64,000 nt of DNA. Origin: an uncultured virus (IMG/VR IMGVR_UViG_2645728028_000003). Lineage: Duplodnaviria; Heunggongvirae; Uroviricota; Caudoviricetes. The notes beneath the pieces were generated by a model. That model saw nothing but the letters and a program-made list of their open reading frames with translations, ran no database searches and had not been told where the DNA came from. The stretch covers positions 1 to 64,000 of IMG/VR virus record IMGVR_UViG_2645728028_000003; one strand, given 5' to 3'. This document shows positions 29,503 through 36,509 of the stretch, piece after piece. The position numbers and the translations under genes were made by a program. Each line of letters starts with the position of its first letter. The stretch's first letter is position 1.

Positions 29503-29688
29503 TACAAAGTAGGCTGAGAATAAGTTCAGGCGGATAATAATGCTCTTTTTTTTCGGTTAATACTAACTGATAAGGTTCCTTATTGTGAAGAAATGGCGTA
29601 ATAAAAGAGGACTTAAACAAACGAGTGCGTTAATTGAAAACAGCAGCCTATAATAAAGCCCCTCTCGAACTGAGAAGGGCTTTTGCAT

Positions 29689-30231
29689 TTATTTCAGGAA
29701 CTCTCCAACAGCCGTAGCCGTTTCAAATCTATCTGCACCAGATAACAGAGTAACTTTGTCTGCTACTATGCCATCTTTAGTGCCCCCTACAACATACAGT
29801 TCTTTTGCTACTTTCTTCCCTTTAACCGTTGAACGCAGATAAATTGGAGCTTTGAGGTTCAATGCAAGCCTCTCAGCTGCAGGGAAATCAGCAAACCCAT
29901 TGATTACAATTGCTTTTCCTAACATATCATCTTCCTCCTTTGGTTTTTGTACTGGTTTAGGTTTAGGGGCCGGCTTTGGTTTCGGTTTTTCAAGAGGTTT
30001 TAACAAATCCATATCCGCCGTTCCTGTTGTCCGGTTATCTTCGTGTTTTATATATTCCTCCGTCGCACCCTCTACCCATCCATTCTCTGTCCACCGTGGT
30101 TTATACAACAAAGGCGGGACGGGTTCTTTTATTAGGTTTGCTTCCAAGACATCCGTATCCTTAACGGCAACGGTATCAACAATGAAGCCATTTTCATCAA
30201 TCAGTTTAGCTTCGATAAACAAATGATTCAC
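29689..30231 (-). pseudogene. Chimera of a 37513-37848 paralogue and an endolysin C-terminus
   Basis: N-terminal part matches 37614-37848; C-terminal part matches the end of 35631-36509. Confidence 0.8.
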
Positions 30232-32175: not shown

Positions 32176-33312
32176 ATGAGTACGAAATTTCGCTGGGCTG
32201 TGCTCCTTTGCAATTGCCAGGGCACCTCTACCAATCAGACGGCCCAGCAATTCTTCGTCAACCTGTTCACGCCAGGACTAGGAGGAGCCATCGATTACTG
32301 GAGCGATATGTCGTTCGGTGAACTGGATCTAACAAACTCGTCTGTCTTTAGTTGGGTGACTTTGTCGATTACGACGGCGCAGGCACTCAACACACGTAGA
32401 AGCGATGCTATTAACATGGGTATCGATGCCCATAAGGCGGCAGGACATGACCTTCGTGGCTTTGACCAGATTCTAGTTTATATTGACGTTCCGTTTATTG
32501 GTCAGAACATAACGGAGGGTGGACAGCAAGGCGCTGGGTCAGCTCAGGGACGAGTGCTGACTGATCAGGGCGTGATGCGTTCCGACTTCATCATGCATGA
32601 GATGGGGCATGGCCACGGGCTGAAGGATGAATCGTATGACATAATGGGGAACGCCTACGGGGACCCGTACTGCATCATGAGCGCCATGTCATACGGCGGT
32701 ACGGACCCCACGTTCATGGACCCGCGCTTCGGCCCTTCAGGTCCATCTTTATGCTCTCCGTACATTTTTTCTAAAAATTGGCTACCACAACAAAACACGG
32801 TTCTTATAGAGAGTAACGGCAAATGGCCGAAGACAACCCATCTAACATTGAGTCCGTTCGAAAGAGGCACAACAGGAAGTCCCCAGGTGGCGATCATTCG
32901 CTTCACGCATCCCTTTACGACAAGCTATTTCATCGACTATCACCAAGCAGCTGGTTGGGATCGGGGTCTTTCGCAAGATGCTGTGGTCATACGCCAGTAT
33001 AGGCCGGACGGAAAATCATACTACGCTGGAAGGATTGCAACATCAGTCGCACATGTAGGTGGAGTAGTACTGCTCCCCGAGGGGGGTTATCTTGATAAGC
33101 AGTTTGATCTTTCTGTCGATACTACCCGCGTACTAGCAGACGGTCGGGTTGAGCTCACGATTGCTCCTGCAGCAGCACTGCAGACGCTAAGTGTACGAAC
33201 TGTAGCGCGCAATAAGCTGGGGCTTAACAGTGGGTTCTCTATACGAGGTAGCATCATGCGACCGGGGACGAACTCACTTCGCTGGAGTCTTGTCGAGATC
33301 CTTGGCGACTGA
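32176..33312 (+). CDS. Metzincin-type zinc metalloprotease (M6/M11-like)
   Basis: HEMGHGHGL, YGDPYCIMS Met-turn, DYWSDMSFG. Confidence 0.75.
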   Translation: MSTKFRWAVLLCNCQGTSTNQTAQQFFVNLFTPGLGGAIDYWSDMSFGELDLTNSSVFSWVTLSITTAQALNTRRSDAINMGIDAHKAAGHDLRGFDQILVYIDVPFIGQNITEGGQQGAGSAQGRVLTDQGVMRSDFIMHEMGHGHGLKDESYDIMGNAYGDPYCIMSAMSYGGTDPTFMDPRFGPSGPSLCSPYIFSKNWLPQQNTVLIESNGKWPKTTHLTLSPFERGTTGSPQVAIIRFTHPFTTSYFIDYHQAAGWDRGLSQDAVVIRQYRPDGKSYYAGRIATSVAHVGGVVLLPEGGYLDKQFDLSVDTTRVLADGRVELTIAPAAALQTLSVRTVARNKLGLNSGFSIRGSIMRPGTNSLRWSLVEILGD

Positions 33313-33465
33313 CACACGCTACGGGAAGGCGGAGCAGATATTCATGAAATCCCTGCTCTACACCGGAAGGTGCCTAGGTGGAGGGATTCCACCGCCTCCG
33401 CGTAAACAAAAACACCCTTCAGACCTTATTCTGAAGGGTGTTTTTAGAGAATGTTAGATAGATTG

Positions 33466-33494
33466 ACTACTGATAATCCTTAGTTATGTCAACA
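33466..33494 (+). other. dif-like Xer site (7-bp spacer)
   Basis: ACTACTGATAA-TCCTTAG-TTATGTCAACA. Confidence 0.6.
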
Positions 33495-33534
33495 AAAATA
33501 GGTTGCGTACCTTTTGGATAATCAACCTGTTTTA

Positions 33535-33563
33535 ATTACCTATAACACTCAATTATGTTAACT
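33535..33563 (+). other. dif-like Xer site (7-bp spacer)
   Basis: ATTACCTATAA-CACTCAA-TTATGTTAACT; downstream ~130 bp homologous to 9382-9505. Confidence 0.7.
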
Positions 33564-33964
33564 AAACATAATCAGGAATACGATAATCTTATTCCTCAAA
33601 CCGGGAGCAAAAACAGAAGATTGTAATGTTATGCCTTTAATATTATCTTGATATCGAGTCTTCAAGAAAAGGGCGCTTTTCTTTAATAAGAAGGCGTCTT
33701 TTTGTATTGAGTAAGATTCTAGAAAAATATATTTATGGGATTGGATTATGTTAAAGTATAAAAGAGATTGTGAAGGTTTCTACTTAAACTCCCTCAGTTT
33801 AATACGATTATCTTCCGAATACTCGCTTATTCGCAGGATTTCATCCACCTAGGATTACATTTAATTGAATGTAAGGAGTAGATTCTGGACATTTGGCTAC
33901 GTGAAGGCATAGTTAAATAGAGGAGTAGGATTATACTCCATATTTTACCATGTGATGTACTTCT

Positions 33965-34110
33965 CCACGCCGCCCCTGGAGGCTTTCCCTCCCATGTCTC
34001 AACGGGTCAATCGCCCTCTCATTCCTTCGTCATGCCTATCCAAGGGGTGGAGGCCAGTCTAGCTAACGGAATGGGTCAGTGCCCTTTTGTTTAAGTAACC
34101 TGGTACTCCG
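33965..34110 (-). ncRNA. Putative IS110 bridge RNA (ends approximate)
   Basis: Two internal loops with GGGC..TGACCC hairpins; guides match the target and the donor junction. Confidence 0.75.
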
Positions 34111-34178
34111 TACATATTTGAGATCCTGCGAATAAGCCAACATTCGATCTAATTTCTCTTCGAAAAAATTTGTTTAAA

Positions 34179-35453
34179 CTAAGCTGCCAGCTCTGTTAGG
34201 GGTCGAACTTTTTCTGGACAATACGATTCGTTATTACGTGCCATTCCTACAAAAATCCTGGCCAATTTCCCAACCAGTTTCATTATCGATTTCATCTTTT
34301 TCATTTTCTTGACTTTCACATTATTGGAGTGGACAGCCTTAAACTCAGCGTTGTTTATTACCAGGCTGATAGTGGCCAGGTAAAGGAAACGCCTGAGTCT
34401 TGACCTTCCACGTTTTGATAAGACAATTTGTCCTTTCCATTTCCCAGAACTAGCTTCAGAGAGATGGAGCCCTGCGTGGCGGAGTAAAGAATTACCGTGC
34501 GAAAACCCACTTAAATCTCCTGCTTCGCCTAAAATACCGGCTAAAGAAATATCACTAATTCCCTTGATCTTAAGCAGTTTATCGGCGAAAGGAATTTTAA
34601 GAAGTTCTTTCTTGATTGTCAGCTCGACTCTGTTTAGTTGTTGAACCGCAAGGTCATACTCTTCGAGTAATTGTTCCAGATGAAATTTATAGGCCTCTAT
34701 GGCTTGCATTGTACCGACAGATTTCCTGGCTACATTGAGAAGTAAATAGGCTTTCTTTAACCCAGGCTGTCTTTTCATGAGTGATTTCCAACCGGAAACG
34801 ATCTCATCTGGATTCATGGAACCTAGTTCCATCGGAGTTGGAAAAAGCCGCAGTGTGGCGATTGCCCCTTTTGCGGTAATGTCTTTAAAGACTTGCCTGA
34901 GTTCGGGAAAAACAATGTCCACCCAGCGATTTAATTGATTAATAGAGCTTACAAGCCTTTTAACAACAACATCCCGGTTAGACATGAGAACCCTGAGTTT
35001 TTCAAACGGTTCAGAAGCAAGTCTCACAAAGGAGTAGTAACCATTCTTCACCATATCGGCTATGACGAGGGCATCTTTCTTATCACTCTTTGATTGCGTA
35101 TTATCACGATTTTCTTTATTCCTTTTAACCAAATGTGGATTAACCGTTACTACCTCAATATTTCGCTTTATGAGCCATTTTGAAAGGTTAATCCAATAAT
35201 GGCCTGTTGGTTCCATTCCGACAATGGATACCTCTAATTTATGTAATCTTTTAAGATTATTAATCCAGTTTAATAGGGCCGAGAAACCTTCTTCGTCGTT
35301 TTGAAAAGTGATTGGATCTCCTAGAACAATTCCACGAAAATTGACAGCCCTGGCTACATGGAATTGTTGGGCAATATCTACTCCAATTACAAGATGCTTG
35401 TCAGAAATTCTTTCGATTAGTTGATTTTGTTTGTCCTGCATTTTAAACTTCAT
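34179..35453 (-). CDS. IS110 recombinase/transposase
   Basis: DEDD motif (GVDIA, GMEPTG, KSDKKDA); C-terminal SSGK...SKRG. Confidence 0.95.
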   Translation of the reverse strand: MKFKMQDKQNQLIERISDKHLVIGVDIAQQFHVARAVNFRGIVLGDPITFQNDEEGFSALLNWINNLKRLHKLEVSIVGMEPTGHYWINLSKWLIKRNIEVVTVNPHLVKRNKENRDNTQSKSDKKDALVIADMVKNGYYSFVRLASEPFEKLRVLMSNRDVVVKRLVSSINQLNRWVDIVFPELRQVFKDITAKGAIATLRLFPTPMELGSMNPDEIVSGWKSLMKRQPGLKKAYLLLNVARKSVGTMQAIEAYKFHLEQLLEEYDLAVQQLNRVELTIKKELLKIPFADKLLKIKGISDISLAGILGEAGDLSGFSHGNSLLRHAGLHLSEASSGKWKGQIVLSKRGRSRLRRFLYLATISLVINNAEFKAVHSNNVKVKKMKKMKSIMKLVGKLARIFVGMARNNESYCPEKVRPLTELAA

Positions 35454-35596
35454 AGTAAGGGTTCCTCCTAAGGTTTGAGTTAGAGTGGTGTCTTTACTCA
35501 TATCTTACTGAGGAGCCCTGTTTTTATCAAAGCTCAAATTTAGTGATCTACAGGAATGCTATAGGGTGCGTTTGTTCATTAAAATAATCTATAATA

Positions 35597-35627
35597 AAGC
35601 CCCTCTCAACTGAGAAGGGCTTTTTTT
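35597..35627 (-). terminator. Lysis-operon terminator
   Basis: AAGCCCCTCTC/GAGAAGGGCTT; related copies at ~28952 and ~29657. Confidence 0.75.
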
Positions 35628-35630
35628 ATA

Positions 35631-36509
35631 TTATTTAAGGAACTCCCCAACTGCAGCTGCTGTCTCGAAACGATCAGCACCAGAAAGCAAAGTAACCTTA
35701 TCAGCTACCATTCCATCCTTGGTACCGCCAACAACATATAATTCTTTGGCCACTTTTTGACCTTTAACAATAGAGCGCAAGTAGACGGGAGCTTTTAGTT
35801 TAAGCGCAAGCCTCTCTGCCACAGGGAAATCTGCAAATCCGTTGATTACAATTGCTTTTTTCAACATATCATCTTCCTCCTTTGGTTTTGGTTCTGGTTT
35901 CGGTTTTTGAACTGGCTTTGTAGGTGGCTTTTCTGTTACCTTCTTTTTCAACCCAGCATACTTTGCAACACCAGAAGCCGCAGCATAACCGGCAGCACGC
36001 AAAACCTTGTCATCTCGAAGCTTTTTGATATCAATAGTGGAATCCATATACCCTCCTTCAAGAAGGATGGAAGGCATTTTCGTTTCACGCAAGATTTGAA
36101 AATCAGCTTTCTTTAATCCTCTATCTTTGAGACCGTATGCTTCCACAAGACGAGAGTGCACATATCCAGCGAGCCTTTCAGCATCTGGCCAGGATCCTAA
36201 ATAGGTATAAGTTTCTGTGCCTGTCCAGGTCCCCCATCTGGCTAGATATGCATTGTGGTGGAATGATATATAAAGATCAGCTCCCCATCTGTTAGCCTTA
36301 TCTACCCTGTCATCGAGAGATACGTCTTTTCGTCCGGTTCGGTCATCTGTCCTTAAAAATACAACGTCTTCATATTTTTTCAGGGCTTGTTCAAATGCCA
36401 AAATGACCTTGTTATTAAAATCCCATTCATATTCATTTGCAGGTGATCTTTTGCCTGCAGTTACTCCAAATCCTGCATGACCTGCACATCCAGCTAGCTT
36501 AAGGACCAA
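35631..36509 (-). CDS. Endolysin, N-acetylmuramoyl-L-alanine amidase (Amidase_3)
   Basis: AGHAG, YEW, ISFHHNA, ILLEGGYMD; C-terminal SGADRFET cell-wall-binding repeat. Confidence 0.95.
   Translation of the reverse strand: MVLKLAGCAGHAGFGVTAGKRSPANEYEWDFNNKVILAFEQALKKYEDVVFLRTDDRTGRKDVSLDDRVDKANRWGADLYISFHHNAYLARWGTWTGTETYTYLGSWPDAERLAGYVHSRLVEAYGLKDRGLKKADFQILRETKMPSILLEGGYMDSTIDIKKLRDDKVLRAAGYAAASGVAKYAGLKKKVTEKPPTKPVQKPKPEPKPKEEDDMLKKAIVINGFADFPVAERLALKLKAPVYLRSIVKGQKVAKELYVVGGTKDGMVADKVTLLSGADRFETAAAVGEFLK

Follow-up and report, generated by a model that had tools for sequence, protein, structure and literature searches.

An IS110-family insertion sequence with IS1111-type organisation and a putative bridge RNA directed at an intergenic repeat of Bacillaceae

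The insertion sequence, its gene and its ends

The window analysed here is a stretch of DNA of 64,000 nucleotides from an uncultured virus of the Caudoviricetes (positions 1 to 64,000 of IMG/VR record IMGVR_UViG_2645728028_000003). Its minus strand carries an insertion sequence (IS) of 1772 bp (33789..35560, the AG core, CT on the plus strand, being counted at both junctions). The element consists of a left end of 107 nt (35454..35560, minus strand, first bases AGCATTCCTGTAG), delimited on a left-end alignment of 44 elements, a transposase/recombinase gene (34179..35453, minus strand) and a right end, a long non-coding region of 390 nt (33789..34178, minus strand, last bases ACTGAGGGAG). It lies in an intergenic repeat, here called R. 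The sequence evidence makes it very probable that this is an intact and recently active member of the IS110 family with an IS1111-type layout, in which the guides of a bridge (seek) RNA encoded in the right end are set to a conserved box of R.

The gene encodes 424 amino acids from an ATG behind an AGGAGG ribosome-binding site; an alternative in-frame ATG upstream, at 35501, would give 440 amino acids. A promoter scan points to a promoter-like TTGATA-N17-TAAGAT in the left end (35530-35502, a consensus match only). The predicted protein matches PF01548 (113.3 bits, cut-off 29), PF02371 (59.1 bits, cut-off 21.3) and the NCBIfam model NF033542, 'IS110 family RNA-guided transposase' (204.5 bits, cut-off 140). 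Among solved structures it shows a distant likeness to the IS621 and ISCro4 transposases; the IS621 transposase (PDB 8wt6) is matched in two short stretches (E = 6e-7), and the N-terminal E and D..D motifs as well as the C-terminal SG motif align with it. By its domains and motifs the predicted transposase is thus an IS110-family DEDD recombinase. The assignment to IS110 in an earlier note on this DNA is borne out by the three models, all above their cut-offs, and by a predicted two-loop RNA 3' of the transposase gene.

The ends of the element were set from the other copies in the genome of the window, which is a scaffolded draft, from 43 end-to-end relatives and from an empty paralogous site in the window. 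The relatives are 80 loci out of 569 confirmed candidates, from named Bacillaceae and Paenibacillaceae genomes, and 43 of the 80 could be aligned from position 1 to 1772. All of these start with AG-CATTCCTGTAG (third base A instead of C in 7/43) and all but one finish with ACTGAGGG-AG, while the flanks vary; AG is found at both junctions in 44/44 elements. The name given in a plasmid collection is just 'IS110 family transposase'. Among the genomic copies identity ceases at 33789 and 35560, shared target bases aside, so that the span of 33783..35582 given by the earlier note includes 6 and 22 flank bases too many. The ends AGCATTCC.. and ..GAGGGAG bear no terminal inverted-repeat relation to each other. 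The only inverted repeat detected between the ends is an imperfect one of 19 nt (arms 33792-33810 and 35495-35513, 74% complementary), which is kept in relatives and whose left arm is set 48-66 nt into the element.

On the left (in transposase sense) the element is flanked by the terminator hairpin of an amidase gene and an R box, ...AACGCACCCTAT, followed by the AG core (35561..35640, minus strand). The right flank (33659..33788, minus strand) reads TTTAAGT-N6-CTTCACAATCT and continues into further repeated sequence of R. An unoccupied paralogous copy of R is found 4 kb from the element (29585..29700, minus strand), behind the 3' end of a paralogous amidase gene; the same terminator is followed by ...AACGCACTCGTT-TG-TTTAAGT...TTCACAAT, with a single dinucleotide at the junction, in a paralogue and not at the same locus. 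This amidase 3' end is a frame of 180 amino acids (window 29585-30231), and the R box there is empty, with TG as its core. Since the ends are constant and the empty site has a single dinucleotide, AG is the core common to donor and target, and no target duplication is made.

Further copies are present in the same genome. Copy c2 (C19:3705336-3706122) has both flanks and is 100% identical to the element on either side of a one-letter gap; contig C4, a collapsed repeat contig, is also 100% identical. Copy c3 is a 5' fragment of 636 bp (C19:4064701-4065336, 99.7% identical) that ends abruptly without an assembly gap, copy c4 is 79% identical and has an internal deletion, and c5 is a left-end remnant. 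Outside the target bases, the flanks of the identical copies differ.

Guide segments and the predicted RNA

The four loop motifs of the earlier note are present on the minus strand exactly at the positions claimed: CTTAAAC (34095-34089) and CCGTTAG (34069-34063) in the target loop, and AGGAATG (34026-34020) and GAGGGA (33991-33986) in the donor loop. The GGGC..GACCC hairpin that it placed in each loop was likewise found, as GGGCACTGACCC at 34084-34073 and GGGCGATTGACCC at 34016-34004. The target guides agree with the sequences it gave, but are one base longer: the 5' target guide is ACTTAAAC (34096-34089) and includes the core G. This guide is the reverse complement of the core G and flank positions +1 to +7, with 8/8 bases matched, and was also recovered as a perfect 9-nt inverted repeat in an inverted-repeat scan. 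The 3' target guide corresponds, in the sense of the top strand, to the left flank followed by AG, with one mismatch to the left flank of copy c2 and none to that of remnant c5. The closeness of the guides to the occupied site that had been noted is thus complete for the 5' guide, but not for the 3' guide, as discussed below. The proposed match of the donor guides to the circle junction holds on both sides: AGGAATG is the reverse complement of CATTCCT, the seven bases of the left end just inside the core, and GAGGGA repeats the right-end bases GAGGG and adds the first base of the core.

In the alignment of right ends conservation is high throughout save for two short segments, and these are precisely the two segments of the target loop. 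The agreement of these segments with the flanks was evaluated for 34 elements with complete flanks (33 Bacillaceae/Paenibacillaceae relatives and the window copy). The 5' segment matched the element's own right flank at 217/238 positions (shuffled mean 152.2, maximum 181), and the 3' segment matched the own left flank at 164/204 positions (shuffled mean 111.5, maximum 144). Neither value was attained in any of 10,000 shuffles, and the same was observed with the 24 distinct guide pairs. Per position, +1 to +7 were matched in 24-33 of the 34 elements, as were -1 to -5; position -6 was matched in 18/34, and -7 and -8 in only 4-6/34. As the matches fall off beyond -5, the 3' guide seems to read about five bases and the core.

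Individual relatives illustrate the relation. The 5' guide TATTCCAC accompanies the flank G-TGGAATA, CCTTGTCC accompanies G-GACAAGG, and the 3' guide TTCCCGCAG accompanies TTCCCGC-AG; one type of target-guide pair among the relatives is GGACAAGG/TTCCCGC. In the diverged copy c4 of the same genome the guide has changed from CTTAAAC to CTTCAAC (A to C) and the flank from TTTAAG to TTGAAT (T to G). The donor segments, in contrast, are near-constant (AGGAATG in 43/44 elements and GGGAGGGA in 36/44), as are the ends. That the target-loop segments covary with the flanks, and that the donor segments and ends are almost fixed, supports the view that a programmed RNA is encoded here.

The predicted RNA has two arms, both on the minus strand. 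The target-binding arm (34054..34103) is closed by the stem CCAG (34103-34100)/CTGG (34057-34054) and is delimited by this stem together with the covariation of guides and flanks; its loop holds ACTTAAAC at 34096-34089, the hairpin GGGCACTGACCC and (T)CCGTTAG at 34070-34063. The donor-binding arm (33973..34046) has the stems CCCTTGGA (34046-34039)/TCCAGGGG and GGC (34036-34034)/GCC (33983-33981), and its loop holds AGGAATG, the hairpin GGGCGATTGACCC and GGGAGGGA at 33993-33986. Around both arms runs helix P1 (33955..34115), in which ATGTAC (34115-34110) would pair with GTACAT (33960-33955). The whole region is bracketed by a long-range inverted repeat (33816..34146) with arms of 28 nt (33816-33843 and 34119-34146) that are 86% complementary. 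A terminator-like hairpin, GGAGTATAATCCTACTCC with a T-rich tail (33922..33939, minus strand), has a stem that is kept in relatives (columns 225-228/240-243), and is a possible 3' end of the RNA.

This structure model, comprising the closing helix, P1, the two arms and the two small hairpins, was evaluated on an alignment of 39 sequences. Of 1864 cells, 97.5% are paired, against 34-48% when the partners are slid by 1-3 columns. In the long-range helix 17 pairs are kept in 98.8% of the cells, with alternation of G-U and G-C. Both-sided changes occur in 37 cells (shuffled mean 11.3), a number attained in none of 500 shuffles. Examples are columns 31/201 in P1 (UA 19, CG 16, UG 4), columns 43/91 (AU 23, GC 13, GU 3) and 42/92 (CG 29, UG 8, UA 2) in the target stem, and columns 115/172 in the donor stem (CG 33, UA 5). 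These compensatory changes support both loop-closing stems. With RNAalifold alone, the CCAG/CTGG stem and the long closing helix emerged, and the donor stem did not.

Four RNA-library runs were examined, and contigs of relatives are present in the libraries, which is all that these data convey. Contig X16 spans 33782-34120 (7 differences in 339 positions), contigs X18 and X19, from one study, span 33936-34148, and contig X20 spans the entire element. The apparent contig ends at 34120 and 33936 and the uncovered parts carry no information on where a transcript stops or on whether the gene is silent.

In the mechanism that we propose, the DEDD recombinase would work with a bridge (seek) RNA, a non-coding RNA for which the 390-nt right end codes. 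In each arm of this RNA a stem would close an internal loop, in which two guides flank the conserved GGGC..GACCC hairpin. The 5' guide of the target arm is expected to pair with the top strand of the right flank (the core G and 7 bases), and the 3' guide with about 5 left-flank bases and the AG core on the bottom strand. Likewise, the guides of the donor arm would recognise the two ends of the element itself, left and right, across the circle junction, and recombination at the shared AG core would then insert the circular form without target duplication. The production of the RNA, its ends, its binding by the protein and the formation of the circle are parts of this mechanism that we infer.

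Repeat R as target and as spacer of gene arrays

Within the intergenic R, the target guides are predicted to be set to a conserved box beside a terminator, ..CCC-NTT-AG-TTTAAGT... The sequence ..AAACG(C/T)ACCC-N-(A/T)T-AG is common to c2, c5 and the occupied site, and the window copy and c2 share the right flank TTTAAGT... Searching the genome with a profile made from such sites yielded 30 copies of R with E-values below 1e-4 and 42 with E-values below 0.01, clustered at 1.09-1.10, 3.19-3.20, 3.64-3.71 and 5.30-5.53 Mb and on contig C20. Mapping the other copies of the element, a check that the earlier note had proposed, placed all of its insertions in this genome in R-like sites. A perfect free target was not found in the genome. 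Four genomic sites have one mismatch to the target specified by the guides, and three of these differ in the core alone (AC for AG). In most of the aligned free R copies the core is AC, TC, AA, TG, CG or AT. Because most free copies carry another core dinucleotide, they are near-targets and not targets: R is a family of near-targets, of which the copies with an AG core are those used. The suggestion that the guides are programmed against R therefore stands for the occupied site, c2 and c5, which are of R type, but does not extend to the majority of free copies.

An alternative that we regard as unlikely, if by no means far-fetched, is that targeting is not aimed at R as such, and that the guides specify some 13 bases for which R happens to be the most abundant near-match. 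The guides indeed read solely the box beside the terminator, and the left flank of c3, ..AAACTGCTTCGAT-AG, belongs to another R-like module and not to the guide-specified box. Besides the lack of a perfect free site, the 32 sites with two mismatches lie mostly outside R (54 expected from composition). All four one-mismatch sites, however, are R-like, where 2.9 would be expected anywhere. Moreover, relatives in other genera occupy the same repeat family; their registers differ from the present one and both orientations occur, one such site being ..GGGGCAGGTT-AG-TTGAAC...

The genome also holds a second IS110-family element, only distantly related, with the left end AGCATTCCTGTAATG.., the right end ..TTATTGAGGGAG and its own right-end homologue of the bridge RNA. 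It is found at C19:3673464-about 3674350, 3192916-about 3193815 and about 5498580-5500400, and on contig C21. It sits at ..GGGGC-AG-GTT.. in the other R module, and its 3' target guide is GGGGCAG. From the insertions of other-genus relatives and of this second IS in R modules we argue for a lasting association of the IS lineage with repeat R, against a chance near-match.

That the element is instead a decayed or domesticated copy, its RNA and guides being relics and the R match the record of an old insertion, is improbable. Truncated or deleted copies (c3, c4 and c5) do occur in the genome, and the 3' guide of the window copy is imperfect against its own site. On the other hand, the frame of 424 amino acids is open and its catalytic motifs align, and recent copying is indicated by at least three stretches with 100% identity (window, c2 and contig C4). 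In addition, the right end is conserved in relatives to a degree equal to or above that of the gene, with 82-87% against 75-78% identity in several.

Least probable, to the point of being hardly tenable, is that the right end acts as DNA, with the 'guides' as subterminal repeats bound by the transposase and the flanks carried along or recognised by protein: symmetry at the DNA level exists, in that the 19-nt imperfect inverted repeat relates the terminus of the right end to an internal stretch of the left end, but identical copies differ in their flanks beyond the target bases and the empty paralogous site is known, which places the flanks outside the element; paired columns that alternate between G-C, G-U and A-U favour RNA helices over duplex DNA sites; and the guides match opposite strands, one the top and the other the bottom strand, as has been shown experimentally for seekRNA and bridge RNA (PMC11187229, PMC11208160).

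Several observations nevertheless weigh against a bridge RNA set to R. The left flank of the window copy, CCTAT-AG, has mismatches at 2/5 flank positions to the copy's own 3' target guide. The relatives are akin, and the shuffle tests thus overstate independence. The 3' donor guide has a one-base variant in 8/44 elements in which the right end shows no matching change, which weakens strict pairing at this position. The base after ACTTAAAC and after AGGAATG is A and not the complement of the core, so that the 5' guides leave the core partly unpaired. At the junction of the model, the alternatives GGAG/CTCC and CTCCAC/GTGGAG fit equally well. Folding of the RNA region, which the earlier note had put forward as a check, proved uninformative for the single sequence (minimum free energy -47.1 kcal/mol, z = +1.56, no more stable than shuffles). 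An Rfam scan of 33000-36500 (E <= 1) gave as its sole match a chance Thr_leader on the flanking terminator, so that Rfam offers no independent model of the RNA. Finally, in this strain the case for the RNA is built on sequence.

R, suggested by the earlier note to be an abundant conserved site, is larger than the box read by the guides and is the spacer repeat of gene arrays. Followed in the sense in which the neighbouring genes run, it has four parts: a conserved box, ..TTGTGAAG-N6-ACTTAAAC-TAAC-GGGTGC; a hairpin of sequence that varies from copy to copy; a T-run; and, often, a second box, ..TTGAAC-TAAA-GGGGCAGG-TTTGTTGAAG... The right flank of the element (window 33560-33788) is itself repeated, at 11 places in the genome and in 14/20 other genomes of the genus, and includes a conserved terminator-like ..AAGAAGGCGTCTTTTTGTAT; R therefore belongs to a unit of at least 250 bases between two terminators. 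R-like sequence was found in 25/40 other genomes sampled from the family (19/25 genera, that of the window included). Sites of the attC type have conserved inverted end boxes around a variable central hairpin, with one site per cassette and all sites in one orientation. In R, the alignment of copies suggests pairing between the outer boxes CTTAAACTAAC and GTTTGTTGAAG at 9/11 positions, and DNA folds of 9 R copies were heterogeneous. Rfam models detected only group II introns in 52 kb of R array and no match for R, inspection of the sequence alone gave no consistent promoter, leader-peptide or dif-like signal, and in the literature we found no described Bacillaceae repeat or cassette system resembling R. 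We also considered R as a repetitive extragenic palindromic (REP) sequence with its own REP-associated tyrosine transposase (RAYT), and dropped this, as the IS200-like Y1 copies are an ordinary multicopy IS without a link to R. About ten identical copies of this Y1 transposase (a frame of 176 amino acids) are present in the genome, e.g. at C19:1296871-1297227.

R separates single short genes in arrays, in this genome at C19:3663870-3706135, outside the window, and more clearly in two other genera (G009 C17:701-728 kb and G035 C1:246-314 kb). Counted from the listings, the copies share one orientation (17/17 matches in the array of this genome and 26/26 in that of G009), and most of the array genes are co-directional with each other and opposite to the labelled R strand. 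The genes encode GNAT, glyoxalase, NUDIX, DinB, methyltransferase, SUKH/SMI1, SUFU and DMP19-like proteins, and many belong to no family. IS110-family transposases and group II introns are also found inside the arrays. The introns (L100:16479-19575 and L101:19064-L102:1890) show Rfam D1-D4 and domain V matches and frames for a reverse transcriptase/maturase; they are apparently nested or duplicated, and one begins 37 bases behind an R copy.

A Xer-like tyrosine recombinase of 279 amino acids is encoded inside the G009 array (L112:6118-6954, minus strand). NF040815 is its best NCBIfam match, at 209 bits against a cut-off of 220. Intact versions are present in G009 and G038, whereas the relative in this genome (C19:3703004-3703848, i.e. 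L102:3004-3848, plus strand) is frameshifted and 57% identical over 127 amino acids; an R copy lies 14-22 bases away from it. Of 40 sampled genomes, 18 have relatives of 56-92% identity, and R lies within 1.5 kb at 14/30 recombinase loci, where about 1 hit would be expected in the 109 kb scanned. The identity of 92% between two genera suggests transfer. An identification of R with the attC site of integrons was rejected: no IntI was found, the best TIGR02249 match in the genome reaching 99 bits and the array recombinase 93, at a cut-off of 265.

By analogy we tentatively put forward, as a possibility that we hold to be rather doubtful, that R is the recombination site of an undescribed cassette system of the Bacillaceae (integron- or rAID-like), that the 279-aa Xer-like enzyme builds and shuffles the arrays, and that IS110 lineages and group II introns parasitise R. 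Each single short gene would then be followed by one R copy, and the recombinase, conserved across genera, would itself be flanked by R. Several IS110-family lineages would have tuned the target loops of their bridge RNAs to different registers and orientations of R, a parasitism that would parallel that of IS1111-attC elements and class C introns on the attC sites of integrons. In G035 a GNAT cassette is duplicated (97% over 758 bp) and ends in R copies; since the block holds most of two R copies, homologous recombination explains it equally well. For the NUDIX gene of an R-flanked unit, relatives in 2/20 genus genomes match no further than the reading frame (77%); their surroundings are different, free of R and syntenic with each other. 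This pattern is compatible with a cassette and proves nothing.

Family placement and comparison with known systems

With bridge and seek RNAs known since 2024 and predictions that already span most IS110/IS1111 entries, one more such element was to be expected; published lists of ISfinder elements with predicted RNAs and targets may already hold a close relative. What the present lineage adds is a set of dozens of natural variants whose scaffold and donor loop hardly change, while their target guides differ and each comes with its insertion site; together they form a specificity table. From these variants it can be seen that +1 to +7 of one flank and -1 to about -5 of the opposite flank are read, what mismatches are naturally tolerated, and that sites which match in other respects are used or not according to their core dinucleotide. 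The lineage, from Bacillaceae and with a long protein of 424 amino acids, belongs to a little-studied part of the IS110 family. Should R indeed be a cassette recombination site in a phylum poor in integrons, the IS would mark that system.

The element has both IS110-family domains, a shared core dinucleotide, and neither terminal inverted repeats nor a target duplication, and its predicted two-loop non-coding RNA is, in silico, complementary to both strands. According to two reports (PMC11187229, PMC11208160), the RNA lies upstream of the gene in IS110-type elements, and downstream in IS1111-type elements, with the top-strand match 5' of the bottom-strand match. The short left end (107 nt), the long downstream non-coding region (390 nt) and the guide order, with the top-strand-complementary guide 5' of the bottom-strand-complementary one, are those of the IS1111 group. 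The layout is IS1111-like and not IS110/IS621-like. For IS1111 proper, PMC11187229 gives transposases of 330-350 amino acids; the group is further defined by a transposase related to that of IS1111 along its whole length and by inverted repeats of 7-17 bp in a subterminal position near either end. Because of its 424-aa protein and its weak, inset inverted repeat the element is filed as an IS110-family member with IS1111-type organisation, and not as IS1111 proper.

The IS1111-type seekRNA elements ISEc11, ISPa11, ISKpn4 and ISPst6 resemble it in the DEDD and PF02371 transposase, the downstream non-coding region and the guide order (Siddiquee et al. 2024, PMC11187229; Durrant et al. 2024, PMC11208160). 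The IS1111-type elements also make no target duplication, and their target is a repeated structured intergenic site, as REP or attC for known members. They differ in the length of the transposase and in the inverted repeat, which here is weak (74%) and has its left arm well inside the element; furthermore, the host is here a member of the Bacillaceae, and a 28-nt long-range helix brackets the RNA region.

The bridge recombinase of IS621 and the IS110 group (PDB 8wt6; Durrant et al. 2024; Hiraizumi et al. 2024) shares with the present element an RNA with separate target and donor loops, the reading of both strands around a core dinucleotide and catalytic motifs that align with the 424-aa transposase. 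In contrast, the RNA of IS621 lies in the left end, its guide order is reversed, its protein has 328 amino acids and the relation is only distant.

Lineages specialised on an abundant intergenic repeat that contains a hairpin are also seen in ISPpu9, ISPpu10 and other IS110-family elements, in REP sequences, and in IS1111-attC elements, in the attC sites of integrons; in ISPpu9 a small-RNA gene lies downstream of the transposase (PMC12288879). The target of the present element is, unlike theirs, the Bacillaceae repeat R.

As for the arrays, integrons are almost absent from the Firmicutes according to PMC9024848. The rAID-1 arrays of Bacteroidales (Ross et al., bioRxiv 10.1101/471110) combine a XerD-like recombinase, intergenic repeats 'reminiscent of integrons' and arrays of immunity genes, and among described architectures they come closest to the R arrays. 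Compared with integron cassette arrays and rAID-1 arrays, the R arrays differ in having no integron integrase, in the phylum, and in a recombinase that lies inside the arrays, in either orientation. In common with these systems, they have co-oriented short genes, a repeated hairpin-forming intergenic sequence between these genes and a XerD-like recombinase, together with immunity-type genes (SUKH, SUFU and DMP19) next to GNAT, glyoxalase and NUDIX genes.

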